From positions 1 to 64,000 of IMG/VR virus record IMGVR_UViG_3300029288_000080: a stretch of 64,000 nucleotides of DNA. One strand, written 5' to 3'. Below the pieces are notes generated by a model. That model did no database searches. It was not told the origin of the DNA and worked only from the letters and a program-made list of their open reading frames with translations. This DNA comes from a virus (Duplodnaviria > Caudoviricetes). The translations under genes and the position numbers were made by a program. How positions within the stretch are numbered: the stretch's first letter is position 1; each line of letters starts with the position of its first letter. Shown here piece by piece: positions 1,617-18,288 of this stretch.

Positions 1617-1700
1617 GCACGGGTGGCGTAATTGGCAGCCGCGCAGGTCCTAGGAACCTGTGGTCGCAAGACCGTGCGGGATCATGGCCCGCTCCGTGCA
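1617..1700 (+). tRNA. tRNA-Leu(TAG), atypical (C33, T-loop ATCATGG)
   Basis: CAGGT-CCTAGGA-ACCTG arm; long variable arm. Confidence 0.8.
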
Positions 1701-1720
1701 TTTCGGTAAAATAGATTCGT

Positions 1721-1804
1721 GCCGGTATGGCGAAATTGGCATACGCAATGGATTCAAAATCCATCGTCTTAACAGACATTCCGGTTCAACCCCGGATACC
1801 GGCA
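1721..1804 (+). tRNA. tRNA-Leu(CAA)
   Basis: ATGGA-TTCAAAA-TCCAT arm; GCCGGTA/TACCGGC acceptor. Confidence 0.92.
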
Positions 1805-1838
1805 TCTAGTTTTCTGCAAGCGAAAGGCACACGATTAA

Positions 1839-3023
1839 ATGTCCACACCCAGTCCCATTGATGTCGCTTTTTCGTTCGACTCGACCGGCAGCATGTTTCC
1901 ATGCCTCACTCAGGTCCGCAGGGTCGTCGGTGAAACCACGAGACAGCTGTTCGCCCTGGTGCCCAACCTGCATGTCGGCATCATGGCTCACGGCGACTAC
2001 TGCGACGGCCCTGACTTCCTCACGGTCCTGGATCTCACTGATAACCAAGCCCAGATCTGCGATTTTGTCCAGACCGTCAAGGCGACCAATGGGGGCGACA
2101 ATCCCGAGGCTTACGAAAGTGTGCTCGCGCGGGCCAGGTCACTCCGGTGGCGCAGCGGCCACGCCAAGGTCTTGGTGCTGATCGGCGACGACGAGCCCCA
2201 CGGGCCCAGTTACCCCCAGAACACCAACCATTTGGACTGGCGCAACGAGGCTGGGCTGCTCCACGAGCAAGGGATCCACATCTACGCGGTCCAGGCGCTG
2301 GCCCGGTATCACGCTGCTCCTTTCTACCGGGAGTTGGCCCAGATCGGCTATGGGGTCCACCTGGAACTTCACCAATTCAGCGCTGTGCAAGAGTTGATCC
2401 TGGCCGTGTGCTACCAGCAGGCGGGCCCCGAGGCCATCCAGCGGTACGAACAGCAGGTCCAGGATTCTGGCCGCATGACCGATTCTGTCGGGGCCATGTT
2501 CGACACGCTGGCTGGCAGGACCGTCCGGGCGGTCCACCGGGCCCCTGCGCCCACGCCATGGCGGATCGGGGGTCCTGGTACCCCCTGCGCCCCCAAGCCC
2601 GCTGGCAAGTCCTCGGGGCCCCTCGGGGCCGTGAAGATCGGGACCGTCGAGGTCAAGGAAGCGGACCTGACCCCGGTGCACCCGTCTAGGTTCCAGATCC
2701 TCGCGGTGGACCGCGACGTCGACATCAAGGGGTTCGTCCAGGAGAACAGCCTGGTCTTCAAGGTCGGGCGCGGGTTCTACCAGTTCACCAAGACGGTGGA
2801 AGTCCAGAACCATAAGGAAGTGGTCCTTTGCTGCGACGCCACCGGGGCCATGTGGACTGGCCGGGCCGCCAGGGCAATCTTGGGGCTCCCGGACGACCGG
2901 ACCGTGTCGTTGCGGGCGGGCCAGATCCCCGGCTACTCTATTTTCATCCAGTCCACAAGCAACAACAGGAAACTCCTGGCCGGTACAAAATTTCTCTACG
3001 AGATGGCTGACCACCCGGGCTAA
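1839..3023 (+). CDS. von Willebrand factor A domain protein
   Basis: MIDAS-like FDSTGSM, GGDNPEAY and LIGDDEPH motifs; Pro-rich linker then C-terminal domain. Confidence 0.85.
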   Translation: MSTPSPIDVAFSFDSTGSMFPCLTQVRRVVGETTRQLFALVPNLHVGIMAHGDYCDGPDFLTVLDLTDNQAQICDFVQTVKATNGGDNPEAYESVLARARSLRWRSGHAKVLVLIGDDEPHGPSYPQNTNHLDWRNEAGLLHEQGIHIYAVQALARYHAAPFYRELAQIGYGVHLELHQFSAVQELILAVCYQQAGPEAIQRYEQQVQDSGRMTDSVGAMFDTLAGRTVRAVHRAPAPTPWRIGGPGTPCAPKPAGKSSGPLGAVKIGTVEVKEADLTPVHPSRFQILAVDRDVDIKGFVQENSLVFKVGRGFYQFTKTVEVQNHKEVVLCCDATGAMWTGRAARAILGLPDDRTVSLRAGQIPGYSIFIQSTSNNRKLLAGTKFLYEMADHPG

Positions 3024-3044
3024 ACCGCCACAAGGAAAACAGAA

Positions 3045-3317
3045 ATGAGACAAGCCACAGACAAAAAGACCAGTCCGTTGAAGTTGTACATCTGGGACGA
3101 CGACCCATATTTCGAACACGCCACGTCCCCTGGGATTCTGTTCGCGATGGCGACATCCGTCAAGCAAGCACGCGAGTTAATCCTGGCTAAGGTGGACCGT
3201 GACCAGAGTATCTCTCCTAGCACTCGTGACGACATTCTGGTGATACTGACACTGCACCATCCCAATGTTCATCGGGTGCCAGCAGCTGGCTACATCCTGG
3301 CCACCGACGGAGGGTAA
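3045..3317 (+). CDS. hypothetical protein
   Basis: AAGGA SD; co-oriented gene run. Confidence 0.55.
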   Translation: MRQATDKKTSPLKLYIWDDDPYFEHATSPGILFAMATSVKQARELILAKVDRDQSISPSTRDDILVILTLHHPNVHRVPAAGYILATDGG

Positions 3318-3318
3318 C

Positions 3319-3879
3319 GTGCCGAAGTTTCGCATTGATTTCAGCCGTTCGGTCTATTCCACTGCCGAGCAGGAAATCGAGGCCCCAGGGTTCATCCAGG
3401 CCAACAGGATCGCAGATGATCGGTTGCGCCAGGGGCAAATACCTTGGGAACCGGATGGCCAGGACGAAAACTTCGACGTCGAGGAAGTGGACCAGGACGA
3501 CACGGCTGACGAGCAAGACGACCAGGACGACGGCCACGATTTGTTCACCAGGGTCAACGGCACCACCTTCATTTCTCGCCGGTCTGCTCTACAGCTTCTG
3601 TACGGAGACGAATGGACCGAGCGAACACGTATGCGCAATTATGAAATCGAAGACGCCTTGCGGGCCAATGGTCACGGGGATCAAGTGTGCATTTCGGAAT
3701 GGTGTCCGTACGACGGCCGTTTTTGCACCCTGCGGGACCACGTGGCACCTCCGCATCCTCCCTGCACGTACGAGTCGCCGCCATACCAGGACGACTCCAT
3801 TGGGGTTCCGTGGAATGTTTTCGGCGGCGGCCAGGTGTCCAGGCACGTCAGAAGTGACGTGGTAGAAAGCGAGGGCTAA
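3319..3879 (+). CDS. hypothetical acidic protein
   Basis: GGAGG SD before GTG 3319. Confidence 0.55.
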   Translation: MPKFRIDFSRSVYSTAEQEIEAPGFIQANRIADDRLRQGQIPWEPDGQDENFDVEEVDQDDTADEQDDQDDGHDLFTRVNGTTFISRRSALQLLYGDEWTERTRMRNYEIEDALRANGHGDQVCISEWCPYDGRFCTLRDHVAPPHPPCTYESPPYQDDSIGVPWNVFGGGQVSRHVRSDVVESEG

Positions 3880-3880
3880 C

Positions 3881-4165
3881 GTGGCCAGAACGATTCGACT
3901 GGAACAGCAGGACAAGATTTGCTCCATGTGGGTAGACCTGGACCGCCCAGGGGCTTCCTCCATCTTGTTGGCTGAACTGTATCCACCGGACCCAATCGAT
4001 GCTCAAAACTTCCGTTGGTACTGGGTGACAGCATCACACGTATTTGTCAGGTGGCTCGGTGACGCACGTTCGGTGGCGTCGTTGGACCACGCCAGAGAGA
4101 CGGGCTTGAGGTTTCTGGCGTATCTCGTGGATCTGGAAGATCTCTTGGGCATGAGGGAACCATGA
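3881..4165 (+). CDS. hypothetical protein
   Basis: abuts previous gene; GAGG SD. Confidence 0.5.
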   Translation: MARTIRLEQQDKICSMWVDLDRPGASSILLAELYPPDPIDAQNFRWYWVTASHVFVRWLGDARSVASLDHARETGLRFLAYLVDLEDLLGMREP

Positions 4166-5041: not shown

Positions 5042-5418
5042 CGTTCCAGCATGTCCACATCACGGTCGTGAAGCCACAGGATGCCCTGCACTGTGGGGAT
5101 TGCAACTTGTGCGACGTCGCGGATGGCCTGTCGGTACTCGTCTCTTTCCTTTTTGATTTGTTTCACGAAGTCTACTAGGTCTAGGGACATTCCGTTTTGC
5201 GTGGTCGTGGCGTCATCGTTGACCATTTTCATACCGTGTTCATCGCCCACGAGTTTCTTGGAGCCCGTGATGATGGCCAGGCGGGTCGCCGGGGTCATCT
5301 CAGGAAACGCGGCCTCCAGGAGCGCCACGGCCTTGCCGGGATCCTGGTCGTCGGCCCAGAAGGTCCTGGCCTGCTGGGTAATGAACTCGCCGGTGATGTG
5401 GAACCCAAACGTCGCCAT
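4807..5418 (-). CDS. hypothetical protein (3' end overlaps convergent gene)
   Basis: GAGGA SD; last gene of a minus-strand run. Confidence 0.55.
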   Translation of the reverse strand: MATFGFHITGEFITQQARTFWADDQDPGKAVALLEAAFPEMTPATRLAIITGSKKLVGDEHGMKMVNDDATTTQNGMSLDLVDFVKQIKKERDEYRQAIRDVAQVAIPTVQGILWLHDRDVDMLERHGAVASARSLDSSRWAVSSSAASRASLAAFSIQASQGSTVMRRPRRCSSSTDVWLHRPAPHEQYTSNSISMESGTSG

Positions 5419-5421
5419 GGC

Positions 5422-5658
5422 TTATTCCTCGGTGGTAACGGGGTGTAGGTAGAAATTCTTGGCCCCGACGGCAAGGAGATCGGCAGCGTGGCCATCCCAT
5501 GTGTCTTGGGCCCCGACTGTATCGCCATTGAGCCGGATGGCCCCGTTGTCCAGGAGCCGACGAGCTTCCGCATGACCAGCCACGAAGTTGTGGTTAACCA
5601 GGATCTGCAGCCAGGTGCACCCGGGCTGGGCTCTCGCGGGCGTGATGATGACCGGCAT
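5422..5658 (-). CDS. stand-alone S4-like RNA-binding domain resembling the TyrRS C-terminus
   Basis: EARRLLDNGAIRLNGDTV...LLAVGAKNFY resembles the TyrRS S4 pattern EARRLIxQGAVxING...LxVGKRxF. Confidence 0.75.
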   Translation of the reverse strand: MPVIITPARAQPGCTWLQILVNHNFVAGHAEARRLLDNGAIRLNGDTVGAQDTWDGHAADLLAVGAKNFYLHPVTTEE

Positions 5659-5661
5659 GAT

Positions 5662-6126
5662 TCACTCCTTGGGGCTCAGGACCTTCTTGACCGATTCCGC
5701 CAGGGCCGTGCGGGCCTCATCGTAGCCTGGGTCGCCTGGAACCTGCTGGATGAACAGCCGGGCCCTCGCGGCCAGGTCGGCGGCCCGCTGTTCCAGCGCC
5801 GCGATGTCCAGGCGCTGCTGGATCTGCCGTAGCACCAGGTTGAGGTAGTCCGGGATGTAGGGAGGTGCCAGATCAATCTCGACGCCCTGGCAGGTGGCTC
5901 GGACGCAGCCGGGCGTGGACGCGTCGAACGTGACCGTGGGGATGCCGGGCTCGTGCTTCGACGTGATCAGGTGGGACCACCGCAGGGCCGTGACTTGGCT
6001 GTCAGGTGGCCTGGAGGCGTTGACGGCCTTGACGAGCGCATCGTCGTGGTAGTGGGGGTCTGCCGTCATGTGCTTGTTCAGTGCCGTGATGAGGTCGTGA
6101 TATTGCTGGTGGTCCAGGTATTTCAT
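5662..6126 (-). CDS. hypothetical protein
   Basis: AAGGA SD; operonic spacing. Confidence 0.6.
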   Translation of the reverse strand: MKYLDHQQYHDLITALNKHMTADPHYHDDALVKAVNASRPPDSQVTALRWSHLITSKHEPGIPTVTFDASTPGCVRATCQGVEIDLAPPYIPDYLNLVLRQIQQRLDIAALEQRAADLAARARLFIQQVPGDPGYDEARTALAESVKKVLSPKE

Positions 6127-6152
6127 GGCGACTGTGTTTCCTTTCGGTTAAC

Positions 6153-6440
6153 CTAGAAATTGTAGGGCCCGTAATCGTCTGGAAACCCGTAGAGACGATA
6201 AGGATCCCGCACGGGATCCGTGGCTTCCGCGGCCACGGTAGCGGGGTCAGGGCGGCAGGACCGCCCGAGGTACACGGCCCAGCGCTGCTCTCCCAGGTCG
6301 TCGGCCAGCCGGTAGACCTTGACCAGCGGGTGCAGGTTCCCAGCCTTGACCTGGCTGGCTTGGATGCCTCGCCGCATCGCGGTCGCGGCCTCGAAGCTTG
6401 AGAGCACGGCACAGCGAAACCAATCGTTCTTGCGGGTCAT
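6153..6440 (-). CDS. hypothetical protein, paralog of 6954..7430
   Basis: shared WFRC..FEAATA.RR.IQ..HPLVKVYRL block. Confidence 0.7.
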   Translation of the reverse strand: MTRKNDWFRCAVLSSFEAATAMRRGIQASQVKAGNLHPLVKVYRLADDLGEQRWAVYLGRSCRPDPATVAAEATDPVRDPYRLYGFPDDYGPYNF

Positions 6441-6745
6441 GGCTGCTTTTCCTTGTTGGTGGGTGCCTGCAGAACAGCGAGCCGTTGTCGTGCCCCATCG
6501 ACGGCAGCCATGCGACACAGCATCTCGTCGTCGTCCTGGTCACCGTACTGCTCCAGGGCCGCCAGGGCCTGGATGGTTTCACGGAGGTGCAGTTTGGCCG
6601 CCTCCAAGCAGAACCCGCATCCTGGGCCTTGGCACGGCACCGTTGTGGACGCTGGCACCACTTGGTGATCGTGGGTCTGGAGCGGCGTGTCCACCAGGCG
6701 AATCTCGCCTACCCTATCGGTTGCTTGGTACAACTGCCGGGTCAT
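6437..6745 (-). CDS. hypothetical protein
   Basis: GGAG SD; ATGA coupling. Confidence 0.6.
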   Translation of the reverse strand: MTRQLYQATDRVGEIRLVDTPLQTHDHQVVPASTTVPCQGPGCGFCLEAAKLHLRETIQALAALEQYGDQDDDEMLCRMAAVDGARQRLAVLQAPTNKEKQP

Positions 6746-6748
6746 GGG

Positions 6749-6952
6749 CTACTCCTCCACCAGGACGTTGGCGCCGCACACCGCGCACTCCCACACCTTT
6801 TTCGGTGTGGGTCCGTGGGTGACGTCCGTGTGGTCGTAGGGTGCCACCGACTCCAGGAAATCCCCATTTCCATTCACTGCCCATTCTTGGGTGATGTGGG
6901 CAGTTGTGTAGAACCGGTTGTGTTTGGGATCGTTGGGACAGATGGCTTTCAT
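6749..6952 (-). CDS. small Zn-ribbon-like protein
   Basis: CPNDPKH...CAVCG. Confidence 0.6.
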   Translation of the reverse strand: MKAICPNDPKHNRFYTTAHITQEWAVNGNGDFLESVAPYDHTDVTHGPTPKKVWECAVCGANVLVEE

Positions 6953-6953
6953 G

Positions 6954-7430
6954 TTACTTGCCCTCGTGACGACGGATCATTTCGCCCAGGACGGCCCGGA
7001 GGAAGTCGTCGTAGTCGGTGTTGTAGTAGAAGAAATCGCCCATGTTGGCCATGGGGTCTTTAACGATTGCGGACTTCCAGCCATCCAGGTCCATGTAGAA
7101 TCCAGAGAGCATCTCGCTGATCTGGTCCCCCATGGAGCCCCGAAGATCCTGAACCAACTGGTCGTGGGAACGGCGCTTGGACTCGGGAACGCGCCAGAGA
7201 TCCTCGGGGTCCAGGGCCGAGAGCGCCCAGCGGGCCACCAGGTCGGGATCGGGGACCTGGGCGACGTAGACGCCCCAGCCCGGACGCTTACCCACCAGAC
7301 GGTACACCTTGACGAGCGGGTGCCGCCCGCGGGCGCGCTGGTCACGCTGGATCCATCGGCGCACCGCAGTAGCGGCCTCGAAGGTCTTGACCACCGTGCA
7401 GCGGAACCAGTTGTGTCTTTGGGTCTTCAT
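6954..7430 (-). CDS. hypothetical protein, paralog of 6153..6440
   Basis: shared N-terminal block. Confidence 0.7.
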   Translation of the reverse strand: MKTQRHNWFRCTVVKTFEAATAVRRWIQRDQRARGRHPLVKVYRLVGKRPGWGVYVAQVPDPDLVARWALSALDPEDLWRVPESKRRSHDQLVQDLRGSMGDQISEMLSGFYMDLDGWKSAIVKDPMANMGDFFYYNTDYDDFLRAVLGEMIRRHEGK

Positions 7431-7437
7431 GGTGTTG

Positions 7438-7698
7438 TTACCCAATGCAGCCCGCAGCCACGCGGTTGGCCACGGGGCGGTAGTTGGCGTCGGGGCCCTT
7501 GAACGACAGGGCCACGAGGCTGTCGGCGTAGCCCTTGGTGATGGTTCTGAAGGAGTCGTCCATGCCCCACCGATTCGTCTCCCACAGGTAGAACTGGCCG
7601 TCCTGGCCCCGGATGACCTTGCAGTGATCCCAGACCGGGACCACCAGGTCGGCCACGACGGTGTTGATGCAGGGGGTCTTGGTGGTGCTGGTCTTCAT
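7438..7698 (-). CDS. hypothetical protein (probably leaderless)
   Basis: ATG 7 nt downstream of the -10 element. Confidence 0.55.
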   Translation of the reverse strand: MKTSTTKTPCINTVVADLVVPVWDHCKVIRGQDGQFYLWETNRWGMDDSFRTITKGYADSLVALSFKGPDANYRPVANRVAAGCIG

Positions 7699-7705
7699 AC
7701 CTAGA

Positions 7706-7746
7706 CTTGTAGCACCATGGATTGCGTTTGTCAATCTTTTATTTTG
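7706..7746 (-). promoter_or_regulatory. sigma70-type early promoter, copy 1 of a 39-bp repeat
   Basis: AAAATAAAAGA-TTGACA-17-TACAAG; near-identical to 10298..10336. Confidence 0.75.
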
Positions 7747-7791
7747 CTTTGTGTGGAATCGCGGCGACCAAGGGGTAGGTGAAACCCGAGG

Positions 7792-8226
7792 CTACTTGCC
7801 CCGCGGGCTAATCTGCACGGACCGGAAATACTGGCCCTTGCGGACATCCCACCCAGGCCCGAAAAAGTCCTGCAACTTCTTCAGTTCACTGTCCGTGAGC
7901 GTGTTGGACTCGACGTTCATGATGTTCATCACGCAAATGTTTGCTGTGGCACGCACGTCGCGAGCTTTGGGCATTGAAGGTTCTGGCACTGGCTGGAAAT
8001 CCAGGCTGTAGAACGTAGCCCCCGACAACGCCATGGCGATCTCGCAGATGTGTCCGCGGTGAACCCCGAGGTTCTTGGTAGACCGGCCCTCACAATCTCC
8101 CTCGGTCGTGACCTTCCAGAGCCCCACGGGGGAATCAATGGCAATCACGCGGTTGCGCCTGATTTCTGCTCTCCGCTCCAACTCCTGGACAAGGTCAGCG
8201 TCGTTGAACTCAGACAGGTTTTTCAT
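7792..8226 (-). CDS. hypothetical protein
   Basis: AAGGAG SD before ATG 8226; WKVTTEGDCEGRSTKNLG block. Confidence 0.65.
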   Translation of the reverse strand: MKNLSEFNDADLVQELERRAEIRRNRVIAIDSPVGLWKVTTEGDCEGRSTKNLGVHRGHICEIAMALSGATFYSLDFQPVPEPSMPKARDVRATANICVMNIMNVESNTLTDSELKKLQDFFGPGWDVRKGQYFRSVQISPRGK

Positions 8227-9184
8227 TTTTGTTCTCCTTTTCGTAGTGCTCGACTCGGTCGTTGAATCTGCACTTGAAATCCATGCAGAATTTCTTGCAG
8301 ATGGAATCTTCGTGGGAATCGTGCTGGCTAAACCAATCAGCACGCTCCTGCACGTTGCCGGGGCCGAACTGGCCGATTGGCCGTCCCTTTTCCCTCGCGT
8401 ACACGGCACAGGGGTAGTAATCGCGGCCGAAAATCGTGAGGTCGTCGCGGACCAGGTGGCATCGGCCAGTCGTGGCCAAGGCGGAACCCCGCATATTCAG
8501 GCCCTGGTTGAAGTTGTTGACGCGGAACCGCAGGATCGGGTGCCGAGACAACAGCGACTCGGGCAGGTCAAACCGGACGACTTGGTTGTATCGGGTGTCA
8601 GTCCCGACCCTGATGTCCCGGACCCCCAGGGCAGAAATGAACTCCAGGATTTCCCGGTATTGGTTGATGTTGTGGTCGTTGAACACGACCCCGGTGCTTA
8701 CGTAACACTTGGTCGCGAGCACCCGGATATTCTCTACGACCTGGTCGAACACGTTTTTGACCCCAGCGAACTGGGGATTCTGGGCCCTGTCGTGGGTGTC
8801 GAGCGAGATGGAAAATAACTCCACCCCGGCATCCACGAGCCCCAGGTACTGGTCGGTAGCCCTGGACCCATTGGTGGAGATCCCGACGCGCATCCCGTGG
8901 TCTCGGATAATCCTGACGATTTCCACGAGGTCTCGTCTGACCGTCGGCTCCCCACCGGTCAGGTGCACATATCGGCAGTCCATCGCGGCCAGGATCCCGC
9001 AGAACTCGTGGATCTGGTCCAAGCCTGGATCCTGGACTCCCCTGGGTTCCAGTCGGTTGCAGTACGGGCAAGCAAAGTTGCATTTGGACGTGATGATCCA
9101 TTCGCAGTAGGAAATCTTGCCTGGGGACATGGAGGCGGCCCGGGATTCCACGACCTCAAGGAAGCCGATGTCTTGGAGCATCAT
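8210..9184 (-). CDS. radical SAM protein (MoaA-like fold)
   Basis: CNFACPYC (CxxxCxxC), LTGGEPT, STNG, ISLD; C-terminal Cys cluster. Confidence 0.9.
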   Translation of the reverse strand: MMLQDIGFLEVVESRAASMSPGKISYCEWIITSKCNFACPYCNRLEPRGVQDPGLDQIHEFCGILAAMDCRYVHLTGGEPTVRRDLVEIVRIIRDHGMRVGISTNGSRATDQYLGLVDAGVELFSISLDTHDRAQNPQFAGVKNVFDQVVENIRVLATKCYVSTGVVFNDHNINQYREILEFISALGVRDIRVGTDTRYNQVVRFDLPESLLSRHPILRFRVNNFNQGLNMRGSALATTGRCHLVRDDLTIFGRDYYPCAVYAREKGRPIGQFGPGNVQERADWFSQHDSHEDSICKKFCMDFKCRFNDRVEHYEKENKNEKPV

Positions 9185-11715: not shown

Positions 11716-11962
11716 CAAAAGATCTCTCCGCTCACGCGGGTAATGTTTTCCTCGCCGATGTCCGGGAAGCTTTTTACACGCAAGACCTTCGCGGTCTCCC
11801 CAGGGACCACAGCATGATCTTGCGCGACAGAGCCACGGACTGGAAAGCATCCGTAGGTGTCGTGACTTCTTGGACGTAGATCGAACAGGGTTACCCGTCC
11901 TTTCTCGGGCTGGTCATGAACAGGGGTTTCAAGCCCCCGAACATAGTCGTGGGGTTCATGAC
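10452..11962 (-). mobile_element. non-autonomous IS200/605-family IscB element
   Basis: removing 10452..11962 restores an in-frame ORF (L)DPRPLP-DQATEAE...; no tnpA present. Confidence 0.7.
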
Positions 11963-12067: not shown

Positions 12068-12082
12068 CAGGTGGGAAAGAAA

Positions 12083-12154
12083 CGGCCCAGGTAGGTGCTG
12101 CCCCCACTACTTTCCGGTTAACTGCCGGACACTCTGCTGGTGAGTTACTGAGCC
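12083..12154 (-). tRNA. tRNA-Asn(GTT), atypical (A33)
   Basis: TCCGG-CAGTTAA-CCGGA; T-loop GGCAGCA. Confidence 0.7.
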
Positions 12155-12157
12155 AGG

Positions 12158-12847
12158 CTAGTCGCGATATTTTTTGAAGTCACGGACAAAATTGGTTTTT
12201 ATTATACGTTGTCTCTCTTCCTCACTGGGTCGTGTGCGGTAGAACTTAGTGGAGCATGTTCTGTTGCAACATTTAGGGCGATTTTCGTGTACATTGTTTG
12301 CCATGTAATACCTGCGTTCCGCTTCAATGTGCTTGCCGCAAGCAGGGCAAACTACTTCTACCCACGCTGCCCCTTGCTGTTTTCCATGCTCCACGGCGTG
12401 TTCTCGTAGGGTCATGATAGTTAGGTTTTCCAACCTATTATCCAGTTTGTCTCCGTTGAGATGGTGGACTATTTCGTCGGATCGCAGCAGACGGCCAAGA
12501 TGCTGCTCCATGACGTACCGGTGTTCAAAAATGTACCGGCCTTCGATGTAGGTTCGGCCCAGATAACCTGGGGGCTTCTGCAACATCCAGCGGCCGTCGC
12601 TGCTGATGAGCCGTTCTTTCTTTCTCCCGATGCCAAGACGTTTCTTTTCTTTGGCGATTCTGGCAACGCGCTGCTTTTTTATCTTGACCTTGACTTCTTT
12701 GGGCACCCTGGTGGCTTCAGTGATGTCACGGACCCAGGTGCTCACCGACGACTTGGCCACCTGAAGGTGCTGGGCTATCGCCAGCAAAGTCCAGCCAAAT
12801 CGGCGCAGTTGTCTCGCTTGACCCATTTCTTTGGTTTTGCTTATCAT
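12158..12847 (-). CDS. HNH homing endonuclease with N-terminal HTH
   Basis: EHRYVMEQHLGR..VHHLNGDKLDNRLENL; AGGAGG SD. Confidence 0.9.
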   Translation of the reverse strand: MISKTKEMGQARQLRRFGWTLLAIAQHLQVAKSSVSTWVRDITEATRVPKEVKVKIKKQRVARIAKEKKRLGIGRKKERLISSDGRWMLQKPPGYLGRTYIEGRYIFEHRYVMEQHLGRLLRSDEIVHHLNGDKLDNRLENLTIMTLREHAVEHGKQQGAAWVEVVCPACGKHIEAERRYYMANNVHENRPKCCNRTCSTKFYRTRPSEEERQRIIKTNFVRDFKKYRD

Positions 12848-12910
12848 GTGAACCTCCTGGTAAAGATTAACGTGGAAGTTCACGTTCATTAGACCGAGGA
12901 GGCAAACCAA

Positions 12911-12982
12911 AGGGCCCTACCCGAGTCGGACGGGTATCTCGCCGGTCGTAGCGGCGGCTCTTTCCCCTTGAGTTAAGGGCCC
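12911..12982 (-). tRNA. tRNA-Arg(ACG)
   Basis: CGCCG-CTACGAC-CGGCG; GGGCCCT/AGGGCCC acceptor. Confidence 0.75.
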
Positions 12983-12993
12983 AGGAAATAAGA

Positions 12994-13066
12994 TGGCCGG
13001 AGAGGAAGTTGAATCCTCAGCCTCGGACGTAAGAAGTCCTTGCTCTGCCAGTTGAGCTATCCAGCC
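12994..13066 (-). tRNA. tRNA-Lys(CTT)
   Basis: GGAC-TTCTTAC-GTCC; canonical D-arm. Confidence 0.8.
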
Positions 13067-13078
13067 GTGGAAACTATC

Positions 13079-13160
13079 TGGTGCGCCGTACAAGACTCGA
13101 ACTTGTAAAAATTTTCCACTTTAGGAGAGTGGTGGGTTATTCCAATTTCCCTAACGGCGC
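13079..13160 (-). tRNA. tRNA-Arg(CCT) with encoded CCA
   Basis: CCACT-CTCCTAA-AGTGG; TTCGAGT T-loop. Confidence 0.85.
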
Positions 13161-13188
13161 AGGCAATATTATAATGAAATCAAACAGT

Positions 13189-13260
13189 TGGGGCCACCGG
13201 AGTACGATTCCGGGCAGCCAACTTAAAAGGATGGTATGCTCCCAATTACATCATGGCCCC
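13189..13260 (-). tRNA. tRNA-Lys(TTT)
   Basis: CCATC-CTTTTAA-GTTGG; T-loop ATCGTAC. Confidence 0.75.
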
Positions 13261-13279
13261 GTAGTTTTTGACTCGGGAC

Positions 13280-13567
13280 TCACGTTTCTTCCTGGTTGGC
13301 ATCGGGTTCCTCCTGGGTCTGTTCTTCCTGGTTGATCTCGGCCATGATTTCCGCCCGGGTGGGCCCTTCGGTGCGGCGCCGATGGCCCCCGCAGACAATG
13401 CAGGAGCAAGGCTTCCGGGCCGACAGATGCATCCTGACGGTCAAGTCCTCGACCTCCTGGGCCGTCTGGGTCTCAGTCTCGCTGATCCAGAAGATTTCGT
13501 GGGCCAGGCGGCGCCAGCGACGCTGCAGCCGAGTAACCTGGGCACGACGGAAATCTCTGGTCCTCAT
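13280..13567 (-). CDS. Arg-rich small protein with CSCxxC motif inside the tRNA array
   Basis: MRTRDFRRAQ..RKPCSCIVCG; own leaderless promoter. Confidence 0.7.
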   Translation of the reverse strand: MRTRDFRRAQVTRLQRRWRRLAHEIFWISETETQTAQEVEDLTVRMHLSARKPCSCIVCGGHRRRTEGPTRAEIMAEINQEEQTQEEPDANQEET

Positions 13568-13602
13568 GGGGACATTTTACCAGTGGCCTCAGGGGATGTC
13601 AA
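13568..13602 (-). promoter_or_regulatory. sigma70-type promoter, leaderless
   Basis: TTGACA-17-TAAAAT, 6 nt to ATG 13567. Confidence 0.8.
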
Positions 13603-13604
13603 GA

Positions 13605-13678
13605 AGGGCCTGGCCGGATGTGCGCCGGCGACCAACGGTTTAGAGGACCGCCGTTCTATCTTGCTGAACTACAGGCCC
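13605..13678 (-). tRNA. tRNA-Arg(TCT), C33
   Basis: GCGGT-CCTCTAA-ACCGT; T-loop CGCACAT. Confidence 0.75.
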
Positions 13679-13683
13679 AGAAC

Positions 13684-13771
13684 AGGAGGATACTGGATTT
13701 GAACCAGTGGAGGCTTTGGGGCCTCTCCGGGTAGCAGCCGGATCGCTTAAACCTGACTCGCGCAATCCTCC
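13684..13771 (-). tRNA. tRNA-Ser(GCT)
   Basis: TCCGG-CTGCTAC-CCGGA; long variable arm. Confidence 0.9.
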
Positions 13772-13776
13772 AAAAG

Positions 13777-13850
13777 GGTGGACGACCGAAGTTGAATCGG
13801 CAACCTCTGCGTTCACAGCGCAGCGCTCTAACCAGTTGAGCTACGTCCAC
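13777..13850 (-). tRNA. tRNA-His(GTG)
   Basis: CTGCG-CTGTGAA-CGCAG; C73. Confidence 0.9.
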
Positions 13851-13851
13851 A

Positions 13852-13923
13852 AGCGGCTGGGGAACAACGATTTCCCACCTTGGGGGCGGAGGCCCCAAAT
13901 GCTGCCAATTACACCACAGCCGC
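13852..13923 (-). tRNA. tRNA-Gly(TCC), C33
   Basis: TGGGG-CCTCCGC-CCCCA; GCG/CGC acceptor end, U73. Confidence 0.75.
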
Positions 13924-13935
13924 AGAAACAAAAAG

Positions 13936-14008
13936 TCGGGAATGCCGGAGTCGAACCGGATCCTAAAGATCCCAAATCTTTCGTGCAACCACTTACACCT
14001 CATTCCCG
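13936..14008 (-). tRNA. tRNA-Pro(TGG)
   Basis: AAAGA-TTTGGGA-TCTTT; C1-G72, A73. Confidence 0.9.
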
Positions 14009-14013
14009 AGATA

Positions 14014-14850
14014 CTATTTATTTTTATTTCGTCTCCGCAGGTCACGTGTCGCCTTGGCGTGTGCCGCACGACATTCTGGACACCTACATTTTCTATAGTG
14101 GTAGTTGGAGTTAGTACCGTGTACTTGGGGTTTTGCTGGTCTTCCGAGAGGACCTTTGCCTGTGTAGTATTTAGCGGAGCATTTTCTGGAGCAAAAATGG
14201 TGAACACCGCGAAAGAATCGTCTGCTTCGTGTGAAGGGAGCACCGCACTGCTCGCAGGTCGTGGTCACCCACGCATCAGGATGGTGCCGCTTTTTATGTT
14301 CTGCATTGTCCGCGAGTAACTCTAGGTTTTTGATGTGGTTATTGCGCTTATCCCCATCTATGTGGTGCACGGTCTCTTCGTCGGTTAGGTCCCGCCCGAT
14401 GTACCGTGACATGACGTAACGATGCTCCAGCACCCTCCCACGTTTGTCAGCCATTGGGTGGCCCGGCACCAAGATGTACACATAGTCACCAACACCCGAA
14501 CTTTCGGTCTTGAACCCCAGGACATATCTAGACCAGCGGGTCCGTTTATTGGTTCCTGGTCTAGGACCTTGCCCCAGCGATAGATTTTTGCGCGACTGCT
14601 CTTGATTATTTTCCCAGTTTTTCTTGCCCCACGCTACTCGGAGTTCTCGGGGAACGGCACGCCCGATCTTGGCGGCGTTGTCTCGCCGTTTTTGCATGAG
14701 CCGTTCCTGTTGTTCCGGAGTCAACACGATGTCGCGCAGCATGTAACTTAGGGTGCTGCGGCCAATGCCGAGTCGGGCATGGATTTCTTTGTAACTGTAG
14801 CCTAGGAGGCGGAGAGCACGGGCTTCTTTTCTGAGTGGGTGGGGCTTCAT
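14014..14850 (-). CDS. HNH homing endonuclease with N-terminal HTH
   Basis: EHRYVMSRYIGR..VHHIDGDKRNNHIKNL; Zn fingers. Confidence 0.9.
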   Translation of the reverse strand: MKPHPLRKEARALRLLGYSYKEIHARLGIGRSTLSYMLRDIVLTPEQQERLMQKRRDNAAKIGRAVPRELRVAWGKKNWENNQEQSRKNLSLGQGPRPGTNKRTRWSRYVLGFKTESSGVGDYVYILVPGHPMADKRGRVLEHRYVMSRYIGRDLTDEETVHHIDGDKRNNHIKNLELLADNAEHKKRHHPDAWVTTTCEQCGAPFTRSRRFFRGVHHFCSRKCSAKYYTGKGPLGRPAKPQVHGTNSNYHYRKCRCPECRAAHAKATRDLRRRNKNK

Positions 14851-14935
14851 GGCGGGTTTTCTCCTGGGAGGAGTTGTCCTCCACTAGAGATTAACGTCAT
14901 GCGGACCTACGTGTTCCCGTGCCCAACCGATTCTT

Positions 14936-15007
14936 TTCCGCTGCCAGGATGCGCGCCTGGAACAAGGCTTTCAGAGAGCCCCGTGTTACTGGTTACACCA
15001 CAGCGGA
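14936..15007 (-). tRNA. tRNA-Gln(CTG)
   Basis: GGGCT-CTCTGAA-AGCCT; U1-A72. Confidence 0.8.
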
Positions 15008-15011
15008 TCAG

Positions 15012-15083
15012 TGTTGGCTAACGGAGTCGAACCGATATCTGGGCGGTATGGGCACCCTATGCTTGCCATTACACCAAGCCAAC
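15012..15083 (-). tRNA. tRNA-Met/Ile2(CAT), C33
   Basis: GGGTG-CCCATAC-CGCCC. Confidence 0.75.
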
Positions 15084-15087
15084 GGAA

Positions 15088-15159
15088 AGCTGGTGGCCGG
15101 GGATGATCCGGCGGCTCCTGGTTACGAAGCAGGTGCTTTCCCAGTTAAGCGACACCAGC
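15088..15159 (-). tRNA. tRNA-Thr(CGT)
   Basis: CCTGC-TTCGTAA-CCAGG; T-loop ATCATCC. Confidence 0.75.
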
Positions 15160-15162
15160 GCA

Positions 15163-15234
15163 AGCCGACACCCGGGTCTGGGCCGGGACCGCAGCCGTAC
15201 CGGGGCTGCATTCTGCCAGTTAAACTATGTCGGC
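15163..15234 (-). tRNA. tRNA-Thr(GGT), C33
   Basis: CAGCC-CCGGTAC-GGCTG; T-loop CCCAGAC. Confidence 0.75.
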
Positions 15235-15238
15235 GAGA

Positions 15239-15313
15239 AGCACCGGGCAAGATTTGAACTTGCGATAAACGGAGGTTGCAGCTCCGCCCCTTCGGCCACT
15301 CGGGCACCGGTGC
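15239..15313 (-). tRNA. tRNA-Cys(GCA)
   Basis: CGGAG-CTGCAAC-CTCCG; U73. Confidence 0.9.
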
Positions 15314-15324
15314 AAGAATCAAAA

Positions 15325-15395
15325 TGGAGCATAAAAGAATCGAACTTTTATTTCCACGGTGCGGACGTGGTGTTCTCCCATTGAACGAATGCCCC
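15325..15395 (-). tRNA. tRNA-Ala(CGC), C33
   Basis: CCACG-TCCGCAC-CGTGG; G3:U70 identity pair. Confidence 0.85.
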
Positions 15396-15399
15396 AAGA

Positions 15400-15471
15400 A
15401 GCGGATTACGGGGTGCGCGCCCGTGCCTGAACCCTGGCAAGGTTCTGTGCTGCTGATTACACCAAATCCGC
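15400..15471 (-). tRNA. tRNA-Gly(GCC)
   Basis: GAACC-TTGCCAG-GGTTC; U73. Confidence 0.8.
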
Positions 15472-15475
15472 GTGA

Positions 15476-15559
15476 CGGTGAGAAGGAGAGTCGAACTCCT
15501 GTGGGGTTGCCCCCGCGCGGGGTCCAGCCGCGTGCCATAGGCCACTAGGCGATCTCACC
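15476..15559 (-). tRNA. tRNA-Ser(GGA)
   Basis: CGCGG-CTGGACC-CCGCG; long variable arm; G73. Confidence 0.85.
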
Positions 15560-15563
15560 AGAG

Positions 15564-15635
15564 TGGGTCCATCCCGCGTTGCACGGGAATCACAGGATCT
15601 TCAGTCCCGCGCTTTACTCTTTAAGCTATGGACCC
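15564..15635 (-). tRNA. tRNA-Phe(GAA)
   Basis: CGGGA-CTGAAGA-TCCTG. Confidence 0.8.
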
Positions 15636-15640
15636 ATGGA

Positions 15641-15731
15641 CGGTGGGTGCAGGGTACGATCCTGCAGAACCCCGATCAAGAGGTTCACCTACGTTCGAAA
15701 TAGGCGCCTTATCCATTTCAGCCAACCCACC
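15641..15731 (-). tRNA. tRNA-Ser(CGA)
   Basis: CCTAT-TTCGAAC-GTAGG; long variable arm; G73. Confidence 0.8.
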
Positions 15732-15734
15732 AGA

Positions 15735-15805
15735 CGGGCCTAACGAGAATCGGACTCGTGTCTCGCGGTAGACAGCCGCGCAGGATACCACTACCCCATA
15801 GGCCC
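15735..15805 (-). tRNA. tRNA-Asp(GTC)
   Basis: CGCGG-CTGTCTA-CCGCG; G73. Confidence 0.8.
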
Positions 15806-16780
15806 AACCGACGTATACCACCAGAAATGTCGTACTCCTGGTGTGCAGTTTTGTCTTTCTACTTTCCCGGCGTACACCTTCGCCCAATAACCTGCCTTGG
15901 GCGTCTCTATACTATAGTTTCTGCACCATTTGACGACTGCGTTGCCGCTTACGCCGAAATAAGTGGAAATGGTACTGATCGGCTGCTCCCACACGAGTCG
16001 TCCGAGCACTACGCTACTGGGGCGCTGTGTTTTTCTACTATTTTTACCAGCACACGTGTACGAGCAATATTTAGCCGCACCATTACCTTCTTTATTTCTG
16101 AAGTGTTCACCACAGGTTAAACAGATAGGTAGAGTAGTGCATTTCTCCGCGTTGGACTTCGCCCTATACTGTTGCGTCCTACTGGGTTGACACTTTTTAG
16201 TGCAATATATTTGTTTAATACGCTTTGTTTTATACTTTGTTGCACACGTAGGACACGTTTTTATTGTGTACTGTTCGGTGTATTGCTCTTCGTTTTTCTT
16301 TTTTATGTTTTTACCCGCGAATGTTTTGGTTTGCGTATGGCAGTTGGGACAAAGTAGACTCAGGTTTGCTAGTCTGTTGTCATTACGCACACCATTTATA
16401 TGATGTAGTTGCAAAGTCAGTGGCATGTCGTTCCACGTGGGTAGCAGGCCACAAGCGGCGCATTTGTTATCCAGCAAGCCTACAAATAGTATTTTACTTT
16501 TTAAGTCGCTATTAGCAGTGCATGCTGAGTGTTCTACGAGAACAGAAGAAAGGCTTTGCATTACTGTTTTGCGGTCTGCGGGTTTTCGTTGGTAGAAGTG
16601 ACTTGTGTCCACCCCTTGTTTTCGCGCACGCTGCCTAATTGTGGCAGCGGTCGACCCTCCTGACCCACCGTAGCCCAGGTCAAGTCTTGCTGTATTGAAA
16701 CTATTGTTGCGTGCGATGACGGCGGCGAACGCTTCATTGCTCAACGCCCAGATCGTGCTGCGCTTCGCTCTATTGGCCAT
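15791..16780 (-). CDS. HNH homing endonuclease, multi-Zn-finger, C-terminal HTH
   Basis: LQLHHINGVRNDNRLANLSLLCPNCHTQT; stop lies inside tRNA-Asp. Confidence 0.9.
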   Translation of the reverse strand: MANRAKRSTIWALSNEAFAAVIARNNSFNTARLDLGYGGSGGSTAATIRQRARKQGVDTSHFYQRKPADRKTVMQSLSSVLVEHSACTANSDLKSKILFVGLLDNKCAACGLLPTWNDMPLTLQLHHINGVRNDNRLANLSLLCPNCHTQTKTFAGKNIKKKNEEQYTEQYTIKTCPTCATKYKTKRIKQIYCTKKCQPSRTQQYRAKSNAEKCTTLPICLTCGEHFRNKEGNGAAKYCSYTCAGKNSRKTQRPSSVVLGRLVWEQPISTISTYFGVSGNAVVKWCRNYSIETPKAGYWAKVYAGKVERQNCTPGVRHFWWYTSVGPMG

Positions 16781-16859
16781 GGTACAGACACCCGTGGGCA
16801 GTCTTTGCCCACTATAAGTTAAGGTGTCCTGGACACTTGAACCGAAACATGAAAAAGAA

Positions 16860-16940
16860 TGGCGAGGGCTGGATTTGAACCAGCAAAGCCGAAGCGTCCG
16901 ATTTACAATCGGATGGGTTAAACCGTTTCCCTACCTCACC
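16860..16940 (-). tRNA. tRNA-Tyr(GTA)
   Basis: TCCGA-TTGTAAA-TCGGA; variable arm. Confidence 0.9.
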
Positions 16941-16955
16941 GAAAATCAGAAACAA

Positions 16956-17031
16956 TGCCTGCGGGCAGAGTCGAACTGCCAACTACGGCTGTCTGAGAAC
17001 CGCTCCTCTAGCCTATTTGGGATACGCAGGC
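16956..17031 (-). tRNA. tRNA-Leu(CAG), short variable loop
   Basis: CGGTT-CTCAGAC-AGCCG; A73. Confidence 0.8.
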
Positions 17032-17036
17032 AAACA

Positions 17037-17070
17037 TGGTCCCGGCTGGACGCGACCCAGCACATTGACA
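17037..17070 (-). pseudogene. 3' remnant of a tRNA (T-arm plus acceptor 3' strand)
   Basis: GCTGG-GTCGCGT-CCAGC-CGGGACCA; no anticodon arm upstream. Confidence 0.45.
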
Positions 17071-17081
17071 CCTCTGTTCGT

Positions 17082-17912
17082 CTACCGCGACGAATGTATT
17101 CCATATTGTCTACACCATTTAGCGACGGTATTGTCTGATACTTTAAATATTTTTGCTATCTTTTTGAAAGATTTTTCAGCGACTAACTGTTGTAGTTTTT
17201 CTGCGGAAGGTCTAGCCACCTTTCTCCGAGATATTTGTGCACACTCCTGTGAGCAATATACTTGTTTTTTGAATAATGCGTCAAAGGTAGCCCCGCACCG
17301 CGGACATTTTTTAACCTTCATGCTCATAAGGGAGAGACGCTTCTTTTTATATGTATTTTTTACTCGCTTTATCCAGCGCAGAATGTACGCTTCGTCTACG
17401 TTGGGTTGCTGACCTGCCATTTGTTGCACGGTAACGGCCGTATCTTTTTCGGCTTTGTAATACGTGCGGCTGTCTTCATAATACACCGCTATTTTTCCTA
17501 TTTTCTTCCCCACCCTAGCCGCCCCATATGCCCCCTTGCATCTGTTTCCGCAAAAAGGACCCGCCATCTTTCTACGCTGCTGTTCCCACAATACGCGTGG
17601 GAGTTGCTCAAAATTTCTACCGCACCACACACATTGTACCTGCGTCATTACACAGCGTAGGCTGTCGTCAGCACTGTGTCGTCCATTAGGAACAATGCGT
17701 AGATTGCTCCAAGCATTATCCGTAAAGTCCCCATTTATGTGGTCTATCGTTTCCGTTTTACGGTCTAACTCCCGGTTGAGCAGTACCTCCACCAAGAATT
17801 TAGGATACGATTTGACCGTTCGCCGCCCGTCTTTAAAATAGACGACGATGTTTTTCCGCCCACTTCCACGGTCAGTGTATGGACCGTAGATATTGGAAAT
17901 TTTTCCACGCAT
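17082..17912 (-). CDS. HNH homing endonuclease, C-terminal HTH
   Basis: ETIDHINGDFTDNAWSNLRIV; AAGGAGG SD. Confidence 0.9.
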   Translation of the reverse strand: MRGKISNIYGPYTDRGSGRKNIVVYFKDGRRTVKSYPKFLVEVLLNRELDRKTETIDHINGDFTDNAWSNLRIVPNGRHSADDSLRCVMTQVQCVWCGRNFEQLPRVLWEQQRRKMAGPFCGNRCKGAYGAARVGKKIGKIAVYYEDSRTYYKAEKDTAVTVQQMAGQQPNVDEAYILRWIKRVKNTYKKKRLSLMSMKVKKCPRCGATFDALFKKQVYCSQECAQISRRKVARPSAEKLQQLVAEKSFKKIAKIFKVSDNTVAKWCRQYGIHSSR

Positions 17913-17971
17913 GGTGCGAACCTCCTTAGCATTTCATTCTACACTAATAGATTAAGGTGGTTGCACTGAAG

Positions 17972-18045
17972 TGGTCCGGGCGGGACTTGCACCCGCAGAA
18001 ACATGGCCCTCGACCATGCGCGTCTGCTGATTGCGCCACCGGACC
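17972..18045 (-). tRNA. tRNA-Leu(GAG), short variable loop, C33
   Basis: CATGG-TCGAGGG-CCATG; A73. Confidence 0.8.
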
Positions 18046-18064
18046 AAACTGCACGAAACGTGTC

Positions 18065-18136
18065 TGGGCAGTATCGGGATTGAACCGATGATCTTCCGGG
18101 TGTTGACCGGATACTCTCCCACTGAGCTAACCGCCC
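18065..18136 (-). tRNA. tRNA-Val(AAC), C33
   Basis: TCCGG-TCAACAC-CCGGA; Val-like GGGCGGTTAGCTCAG body. Confidence 0.85.
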
Positions 18137-18140
18137 TGGA

Positions 18141-18213
18141 TGTGCCTGGAGGAACTTGAATCCCCATAGTACCGCCTATCGAGCGGTCGCCTTACCTATT
18201 AGGCCACAGGCAC
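18141..18213 (-). tRNA. tRNA-Ile(GAT), C33
   Basis: ACCGC-TCGATAG-GCGGT. Confidence 0.8.
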
Positions 18214-18221
18214 GTGGTCAA

Positions 18222-18288
18222 CAGCCCACTGGAGGATCGAACTCCACCGATGACCTTTGGAGGGTCGTCTGCACCCAGTGCGTGGGCT
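18222..18288 (-). tRNA. tRNA-Trp(CCA) with minimal D-arm
   Basis: GACC-CTCCAAA-GGTC; D-arm GCAC-TGG-GTGC; G73. Confidence 0.8.

Follow-up and report, generated by a model that had tools for sequence, protein, structure and literature searches.

Covarying departures from the universal loop nucleotides in the tRNA array of a huge phage and its sister

The first 64,000 nucleotides of the virus record IMGVR_UViG_3300029288_000080 (hereafter the window) carry a dense array of transfer RNA (tRNA) genes, which raises the question of why so many of them lack loop nucleotides that are nearly universal in tRNAs. An earlier note, made from the sequence alone, had read these departures as selected variants that escape host anticodon nucleases or work without host modifications. 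The window contains 31 tRNA genes (ARAGORN, Infernal and hand checks), which together serve 19 amino acids, all but Glu. The U33 expected of a canonical elongator is absent from 10 of the 31 genes (about one third), 15 T loops differ from TTCRA at positions 54, 55 or 58, and six genes have A18 in the D loop. The changes covary, are specific to one phage lineage and flip rapidly between orthologues. We favour, at roughly even confidence, the reading that these are functional tRNAs in which the universal loop constraint has shifted from sequence identity to structure only.

ARAGORN at default settings called 28 genes; Infernal and a relaxed ARAGORN run added Lys-TTT and Gly-GCC, and Asn-GTT was recognised by hand. 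The Rfam model RF00005 (family threshold 29 bits) detected 27 of the 31 genes at 33–66.6 bits. Below the model lie Arg-ACG, Gly-TCC, Trp and Asn, which Infernal missed and of which the first three were called by ARAGORN only, whereas default ARAGORN missed Lys-TTT, Gly-GCC and Asn. The genes without Rfam recognition form clean ARAGORN or minimum-energy cloverleaves. The Asn-GTT candidate, called by neither program, has an exact 7/4/5/5 cloverleaf as its minimum-energy fold and occupies a position syntenic with Asn-GTT of the sister phage described below. The operon and the genes that depart from the canonical loops are as follows.

12083-18289 (-): main tRNA operon, 27 tRNA genes (ARAGORN, Rfam RF00005)
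1617-1700 (+): tRNA-Leu(TAG), anticodon loop CCTAGGA (C33), T loop ATCATGG (A54/U58), long variable arm, A73, Rfam 33 bits
12083-12154 (-): candidate tRNA-Asn(GTT), anticodon loop CAGTTAA (A33), T loop GGCAGCA (G54 G55 C56 A57 G58), D loop ACCAGCA (A18 G19)
12911-12982 (-): tRNA-Arg(ACG), U33, T loop TCCGACT (C55)
13189-13260 (-): tRNA-Lys(TTT), U33, T loop ATCGTAC (A54/U58), Rfam 48.7 bits, ARAGORN at lowered threshold
13605-13678 (-): tRNA-Arg(TCT), anticodon loop CCTCTAA (C33), T loop CGCACAT (G55), D loop AGCAAGATA (A18 G19)
13852-13923 (-): tRNA-Gly(TCC), anticodon loop CCTCCGC (C33), T loop ATCGTTG (A54/U58), U73
14936-15007 (-): tRNA-Gln(CTG), U33, T loop CGCGCAT (G55), D loop AACCAGTA (A18 G19)
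15011-15083 (-): tRNA-Met(CAT), anticodon loop CCCATAC (C33), canonical T loop
15088-15159 (-): tRNA-Thr(CGT), U33, T loop ATCATCC (A54/U58)
15163-15234 (-): tRNA-Thr(GGT), anticodon loop CCGGTAC (C33), T loop CCCAGAC (C54:G58, C55)
15324-15396 (-): tRNA-Ala(CGC), anticodon loop TCCGCAC (C33), G3:U70, canonical T loop
15400-15471 (-): tRNA-Gly(GCC), U33, T loop CGCGCAC (G55), D loop AATCAGCA (A18 G19)
15563-15635 (-): tRNA-Phe(GAA), U33, T loop TGCAACG (U54 G55 C56 A57 A58, that is UGNRA), D loop AAAGAGTA (A18 G19)
15637-15732 (-): tRNA-Ser(CGA), T loop ATCGTAC
15733-15806 (-): tRNA-Asp(GTC), anticodon loop CTGTCTA (U37), T loop TCCGATT (C55)
17971-18045 (-): tRNA-Leu(GAG) of short type without long variable arm, anticodon loop TCGAGGG (C33), T loop TGCAAGT (G55), D loop CAATCAGCAGA (A18 G19)
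18065-18136 (-): tRNA-Val(AAC), anticodon loop TCAACAC (C33, A34), canonical T loop
18141-18213 (-): tRNA-Ile(GAT), anticodon loop TCGATAG (C33)
41315-41386 (+): tRNA-Met(CAT) outside the array, G29-31:C39-41 anticodon stem, T loop ATCGGAA (A54, G58)

Position 33 is U in 21 genes, C in nine and A in one (Asn). Parsed ARAGORN structures gave exactly the nine C33 tRNAs that the earlier note had named, the A33 that it had reported for Asn is present as well, and Infernal alignments independently placed C under the consensus U33 in Val, Ala, Ile, Met and Thr-GGT. A register error in the loop assignment was rejected: the stems are unambiguous, Infernal agrees, and G3:U70 of tRNA-Ala fits its anticodon. 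C occupies position 33 in about 27% of cases compared with about 60% at position 32, where both pyrimidines are acceptable; U33 is thus still preferred, weakly. U32 is retained in four of the nine C33 loops, for which reason a general avoidance of uridine in anticodon loops was also rejected.

A portal-protein alignment yielded 20 related viral loci, whose records were scanned for tRNAs. The closest is a sister phage (portal 85% identical, 105-kb Logan contig) that carries the array in the same gene order at positions 5326-9662 of its contig. Its 27 tRNAs include six with C33 (Leu-GAG, Leu-CAG, Gln-CTG, Gly-TCC, Ser-GCT and Asn-GTT), and its T loops comprise ten of the A54 type or CGCGCAT, together with CTCAGAC, CTCGACC, TCCAAAT and CCCAUAC. 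Distant clade relatives (portal 41–57% identical) have U33 in 63 of 65 tRNAs and TTCRA in 62 of 65; three closer portal relatives (58–73% identical) have no tRNAs on their contigs. Position 33 is not U in 16 of 57 tRNAs of the phage and its sister, compared with 2 of 65 in the distant clade relatives (Fisher p = 1.6e-4), and odd T loops number 28 of 57 compared with 3 of 65 (p = 1e-8); both tests predate recognition of the sister's 27th tRNA, with which the totals become 16/58 and 29/58. The unorthodox-loop habit is real and specific to the sublineage of this phage and its sister. Guanine+cytosine (GC) pressure alone was rejected as the cause, relatives at 53–56% GC being canonical and an A54:U58 swap being GC-neutral.

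The departures in the T and D loops are linked. In the counts that follow, the tRNAs of the phage and its sister are pooled. U54 is accompanied by A58 in 34 of 34 cases and A54 by U58 in 14 of 15 (p = 2e-11), and C54 occurs twice, each time with G58. The swap of T54/A58 to A54/T58 that the earlier note had described is therefore well borne out, as is its remark that odd T loops keep C56: C56, the purine at 57 and G19 are kept in all 31 genes of the window, and across both phages C56 and R57 are each found in 58 of 58 and the G19:C56 pair is invariant. All the T loops that it had listed are present (ATCATGG, ATCGTAC in both Ser-CGA and Lys-TTT, ATCATCC, ATCGTTG, CGCACAT, CGCGCAT, CCCAGAC and GGCAGCA), and we identified six more: CGCGCAC (Gly-GCC), TGCAACG (Phe), TGCAAGT (Leu-GAG), TCCGACT (Arg-ACG), TCCGATT (Asp) and ATCGGAA (Met at 41315). 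Furthermore, G55 occurs with A18 in seven of seven tRNAs and A18 with G55 in seven of eight, the sole exception being the sister's tRNA-Tyr, in which A18 accompanies C55. The Fisher value for this 18:55 association (p = 4e-9) comes from a 7/0/0/50 table without the Tyr exception and is slightly overstated. The seven G55 loops (CGCACAT, CGCGCAT twice, CGCGCAC, TGCAACG, TGCAAGT and GGCAGCA) face a D loop with AG where GG is usual, and Infernal independently aligns this A under the consensus G18. Moreover, tRNAs with odd T loops have GC-richer T stems, with 3.96 G:C pairs of 5 compared with 3.24 in the others (p = 8e-4).

The combination of G55 with A18 resembles a known RNA motif. T loops outside tRNA follow the consensus YGNRA, with a near-invariant adenosine intercalated between positions 4 and 5, whereas the tRNA type is UUCRA and a rare rRNA type is GGAAG (bioRxiv 10.1101/2022.12.26.521914). 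The TGCAA of Phe and Leu-GAG, combined with A18, matches the full YGNRA pattern (as UGNRA), the CGCRC loops with A18 fit except for C at position 5, and GGCAG of Asn approximates the GGAAG type. A18 rather than G18 would take the intercalating position in each of the seven G55 tRNAs, as in the generic motif of riboswitches, rRNA and RNase P; the present loops differ in that they lie in tRNAs, which as a rule have UUCRA with G18. From their sequences, the G55 tRNAs thus appear to use the general T-loop solution instead of the tRNA-specific one.

Gene order in the array is the same in both phages, although their sequences have diverged to saturation. Unrelated tRNA pairs between them are 55% identical (standard deviation 7%), most orthologues are 55–70% identical, and seven pairs stand clearly above this background at 73–93%. 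Three of these seven differ at position 33 (Ser-GCT, Ile-GAT and Thr) and five at position 54, 55 or 58; C33 is common to both phages in Gly-TCC and Leu-GAG only. Ile-GAT, 90% identical, has TCGATAG (C33) here and TTGATAG (U33) in the sister. Ser-CGA, 85% identical, has ATCGTAC here and TTCGAGC in the sister (A54:U58 compared with U54:A58), with compensatory changes in two stems. Gly-TCC, 74% identical and with the same anticodon arm, combines AATTGGCA with ATCGTTG here and AGTAGTA with CGCGCAT in the sister. Across both phages, C is the state in 15 of the 16 cases in which position 33 is not U. Thr-GGT of this phage is closest to the sister's Thr-CGT (T loop CTCAGAC) and Arg-CCT matches its Arg-CCG. 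One T arm is repeated identically in three adjacent sister tRNAs, a sign of gene conversion or duplication.

Several features argue that the array is functional. Identity elements are in place in the subset of tRNAs that we checked: G3:U70 in Ala; U73, C2:G71 and G3:C70 in Gly; U73 in Cys; the long arm and A73 in Leu-TAG; and the extra 5' G in His. Read from the sequences, the cloverleaves are full and Ala G3:U70 and the U73 of Gly and Cys are present, as the earlier note had maintained for stems and identity elements. The anticodons pair with phage-preferred codons (GAC 68%, CAG 69%, ATC 65% and TAC 70%), and the non-canonical tRNAs read codons as heavily used as those of the canonical ones (GAC, ACC, CAG, GGC and ATC). 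An association of odd loops with rare codons was accordingly rejected on the basis of phage codon usage. Since A, C or G at 54 cannot become m5U54 and G or C at 55 cannot become pseudouridine, the earlier suggestion that the variants would work without host modifications is sound as far as these positions can be read; about half of the tRNAs cannot carry m5U54, pseudouridine 55 or m1A58 and would have to work without them.

The region is the tRNA operon of a huge phage, and on the reading that we favour its tRNAs would most likely be functional adaptors matched to the phage's codon preferences; the RNAs of the array would adopt the L shape, be charged and decode. Position 33 would be constrained to a pyrimidine, with A33 in a single gene, and the 54:58 closing position to a pair, which can be U:A, A:U or C:G. 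The 18:55 contact would be made either by G18 with U or C55 (the tRNA type) or by A18 with G55 (the YGNRA type with its intercalating adenosine), on an elbow platform of G19:C56 and purine 57 that is invariant. The variants would be tolerated, slightly costly solutions buffered by the GC-richer T stems, and would spread by fast array turnover through duplication, anticodon switching, gene conversion and homing-endonuclease traffic. We lean against the idea that each variant is tuned to protect a particular tRNA.

Other observations weigh against this reading. Four tRNAs (Arg-ACG, Gly-TCC, Trp and Asn) are unrecognised by the Rfam model. The GC-richer stems suggest that the variants carry a cost, and a frequency of 50% is then hard to explain without a benefit. 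More distant clade relatives, some of them of similar GC content (54–56%), keep canonical loops, and pure drift leaves the lineage-specific change unexplained. The sister's Ser-GCT differs from the copy in this phage at two tRNA positions only, U33 to C33 and U55 to C55; both belong to the most strongly conserved sites of tRNAs, and the difference looks directed rather than random. In addition, the array tRNAs are partly paralogous and come from only two genomes of the sublineage, so that independent covariation events are fewer than the raw counts; the G55 loops perhaps have 3–4 origins. A stronger proposition, which we consider unlikely, is that this lineage rewrote U33, T54, pseudouridine 55, A58 and G18 into covarying alternatives that keep the fold, giving a translation-competent set invisible to host enzymes or phage effectors that read canonical loops, with a natural A18:G55 'riboswitch-type' elbow among them. 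We found no description of such an elbow for tRNAs in the papers searched.

That the odd tRNAs are pseudogenes or drifting to loss, with the host supplying all tRNAs, is improbable. The four genes unrecognised by Rfam would fit such decay, as would multiple departures within single genes (A33, G54, G55 and G58 in Asn; U37 in Asp; C37 in Ser-GGA), states that are not conserved between the two phages, and orthologues whose identity mostly lies at 55–70% against an unrelated-pair background of 55%. However, every gene has a full cloverleaf with standard spacing, the changes at 54:58 and 18:55 are paired, and C56, G19 and R57 are invariant in 58 genes; unconstrained decay would also have produced purines at position 33, where nearly all substitutions are C. 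The odd loops show no tie to rarely used codons, and gene order has been conserved despite saturating divergence. Because C33 shows no statistical association with odd T loops (p = 0.25), there is no whole-gene decay or pile-up of damage in a few genes. The earlier note had opposed selected variants to decay. Its rejection of decay stands, supported by the intact cloverleaves and identity elements, the covariation, the invariant elbow, the GC-richer stems and the heavily used codons; its picture of stable, tRNA-specific adaptations does not, given the differences among the seven orthologue pairs. Indeed, it had named randomness of the substitutions among close relatives as grounds for abandoning its view, and the state flips in those pairs come close to that. 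Restoration of U from C33 (and from C54 and C55) in the transcript by a cytidine deaminase is highly improbable. CDAT8 edits C8 of Methanopyrus kandleri tRNAs, all non-U33 states but one are C, and C54 and C55 also occur; still, a search of the 177 kb of the record, from which about 30% of the genome is absent, turned up no CMP/dCMP-type deaminase domain, editing leaves A54:U58, G55 with A18 and A33 unexplained, and the mixture of U33 and C33 among orthologues fits simple tolerance.

An account that we regard as possible, if less than likely, holds that the loop changes were selected to remove nucleotides read by host tRNA nucleases or modifying enzymes (U-specific anticodon-loop cleavage of the HEPN/Cas13 type, other anticodon nucleases, and readers of the T-psi-C loop), so that the phage tRNA set sustains translation once host tRNAs are cut. 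RtcB is a ligase that reseals and repairs nuclease-cut tRNAs, and because the phage encodes a full-length RtcB RNA ligase (192 bits, record positions 174815-175897(+), outside the window), tRNA damage would be a pressure in this lineage. The sister phage encodes an RNA 2'-phosphotransferase of the Tpt1/KptA type (PF01885; 12680-13222 of its contig), for which this phage gave a single weak match below threshold; RtcB here and Tpt1/KptA there are RNA repair functions. Such escape would also suit the restriction of the pattern to this lineage, with several unrelated universal positions changed without loss of fold while relatives remain canonical, the Ser-GCT orthologues that differ solely at U33 and U55, the presence of variants in tRNAs for the most used codons, apparently buffered by stronger stems, and the near-complete set of 19 amino acids. 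Changes in phage tRNA anticodon loops have been predicted to block VapC, PrrC and colicins (PMC10264068), and Cas13b6, once activated, cleaves anticodon loops after their uridines, in tRNA-Val with excision of U33 (PMC13692257). A tRNA-specific nuclease, however, would give a conserved change, as in the model of van den Berg et al., in which the protective change is conserved per isoacceptor; here C33 is shared by two isoacceptors only, and the orthologues of Ile-GAT, Ser-GCT and Thr switch state. U32 stands next to C33 in four of the nine C33 loops, and C33 left cleavage by the K. lactis gamma-toxin, an anticodon nuclease for which this was tested, unchanged (PMC2275089). Our literature search found no defence nuclease that reads T-loop bases, and Cas12a3 contacts the T-arm backbone only (PMC12851939). 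Escape from nucleases or modification enzymes is plausible, weakened by the state flips between orthologues. The same flips count against a quite improbable alternative in which the phage itself attacks or modifies canonical host tRNA loops, for example through ART, RelE or GNAT domains of a portal-adjacent cassette, its own tRNAs being exempt. Large multi-domain proteins encoded after the portal gene do match RelE-like, acetyltransferase and Nudix families, some ADP-ribosyltransferase toxins are known to modify tRNA anticodon loops (PMC13617354), and the lineage-specific change again spans several unrelated universal positions. Half of the phage's own tRNAs are fully canonical, though, and would be struck too.

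The tolerance that we favour has partial counterparts in known systems. The best known functional class with C33 and A54 is the eukaryotic cytoplasmic initiator tRNA-Met, which has C33 in vertebrates and plants together with A54 and A60. It is a single specialised initiator with A54 opposite A58, whereas the present tRNAs are elongators of many specificities with A54 opposite U58. In its layout the array resembles that of phage T5 (AY543070, approximately 28–41 kb), where more than 20 closely packed tRNA genes, serving most amino acids, are separated in places by small open reading frames (ORFs) and by genes for HNH homing endonucleases; according to the record notes, many of these T5 tRNAs are functional as suppressors. 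T5 has U33 in 22 of 22 and TTCRA in 21 of 22 called tRNAs, in contrast to the third without U33 and half without TTCRA found here. We also observed that the T5 tRNA-Ile(GAU), at 6211-6287 of the region examined, has the T loop TTTAAAT and the D loop AGCGATCTA, and its record describes it as a suppressor after an anticodon change; its elbow can be read as a covariation in which A19:U56 replaces G19:C56.

Large phage tRNA sets that depart from the canonical or host sequence in their anticodon loops, and that are proposed to serve as a reserve after cleavage of the host tRNAs, have been described in the nuclease-insensitive model for mycobacteriophage cluster C1 (van den Berg et al. 2023, PMC10264068) and for T5 tRNA-Tyr against retron and PARIS defences (PMC11555353). 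In those systems the changes fall at tRNA-specific nuclease sites and are judged against known host tRNAs. Here the universal positions 33, 54, 55, 58 and 18 are changed, T and D loops included, and the changes are not retained isoacceptor by isoacceptor. Bacterial long tRNA arrays (L-arrays) such as the Anabaena PCC 7120 trn operon, whose operonic tRNAs have been linked with RtcB in recovery from translational stress (PMC8421152), are likewise mobile, near-complete spare sets; they are cellular elements, and we found no description of T-/D-loop covariation for them. What is new here is the density of loop changes and the linkage between changes in the T and D loops.

The surroundings of the array were also characterised, and its remaining features are listed here.

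878-1806 (+): second tRNA group, with Gln-TTG (canonical), Leu-TAG (odd) and Leu-CAA (canonical)
12158-12910, 14014-14850, 15791-16780 and 17082-17912: HNH homing-endonuclease ORFs within the array (Pfam/PHROGs)
13280-13567: small ORF within the array
13684-13771 (-): tRNA-Ser(GCT), canonical loops in this phage
15239-15313 (-): tRNA 'Cys'(GCA), U73
15474-15560 (-): tRNA-Ser(GGA), C37
16955-17032 (-): 'Leu'(CAG) anticodon tRNA without long variable arm

The complete record is 177.6 kb long and estimated to be about 70% complete. It is a huge phage of an uncultured clade; contigs with portal relatives reach 365 kb. Terminase and portal span 48.9–55.3 kb of the window, the large terminase gene lying at 48887-52621(+) (an ORF of 1244 aa with an intein-sized insert) and the portal gene at 53062-55335. 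Because relatives carry intein and LAGLIDADG domains in the portal and in a large gene upstream of it, an intein inside this terminase is likely. The array and the portal are separated by about 35 kb in this phage and by about 10 kb in the sister, where their relative orientation is inverted, and the HNH ORFs occupy different array positions in the two phages. Directly after the last array tRNA lies an IscB-type gene (RRXRR + HNH, 492 aa) with its HEARO/omega RNA, at 10372-11962(-), the RNA itself (11740-11962) scoring 104.8 bits in Rfam; this insert is absent at the corresponding point of the sister, where the flanking sequence is conserved. In most of the tRNA genes the CCA end is not encoded, and no CCA-adding enzyme was detected among the genes of the phage. 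Promoter-like sites, one of them strong, are predicted on the array strand.

Comparison of the tRNA array with the phage collection, in near and distant modes and even at low stringency, gave no match, and single-protein searches with the two ORFs flanking it found no relatives among viral contigs. The sole homologue of the ORF at 18906-19553 is carried by a 3.1-kb contig that lacks tRNAs. The ORFs at 4.8–10.3 kb near the array showed no tRNA-related function; the radical SAM protein encoded at 8210-9184 matches generic MoaA/SPASM-type models only, below their thresholds. An exact-pattern search of viral and metagenome contigs with the conserved D arm of Ser-GCT also gave no match.

Some tRNAs are unusual in other respects. 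The 'Leu' anticodon tRNAs (GAG and CAG here; CAA, TAG and AAG also in relatives) are 73–78 nt long without the long variable arm of bacterial tRNA-Leu, and a CAATNGGCAGA-type D loop is common to these short forms across the whole phage clade. The 'Cys' GCA tRNA has a short variable region and a 23-nt D-arm stretch identical to cellular tRNA-Ser/tRNA-Leu of many soil bacteria; this resemblance suggests a Ser-type tRNA that was remodelled into Cys. A search with this D-arm pattern returned cellular tRNA-Ser/tRNA-Leu genes of diverse soil phyla (57–72% identical overall) and one viral contig without a called tRNA, and yielded neither a host nor further phage relatives. In bacterial systems A34 is found in Arg-ACG only, where it is converted to inosine, and other A34 tRNAs are unusual; besides Arg-ACG, A34 occurs in Val-AAC here and in Leu-AAG, Asp-ATC and Thr-AGT of clade relatives. 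At position 37, where nearly all tRNAs have a purine, Ser-GGA has C and Asp-GTC has U. The tRNA-Met at 41315-41386 has an initiator-like GGG:CCC anticodon stem and adjoins a transposase ORF at 41998-43470(+) (PHROG 'transposase'); its sister orthologue, 73% identical, has a canonical T loop.

In summary, few nucleotides in biology are as conserved as U33, T54, pseudouridine 55, A58 and G18, and these are replaced in about half of the approximately 58 tRNAs of two related phages, with the fold kept by covariation. Because four of the 31 genes escape the Rfam model and neither finder recovered the full set, such tRNAs are missed or under-scored by standard finders, and metagenomic phage tRNA counts may be underestimates. 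If these tRNAs work, the constraints on the universal loops would be weaker or more structural than the textbook view holds, and natural tRNA elbows would exist in which the generic YGNRA T loop is combined with an intercalating adenosine. The array would then also provide a ready panel of native and reverted tRNAs for testing whether tRNA-targeting defences and modification enzymes read these positions.

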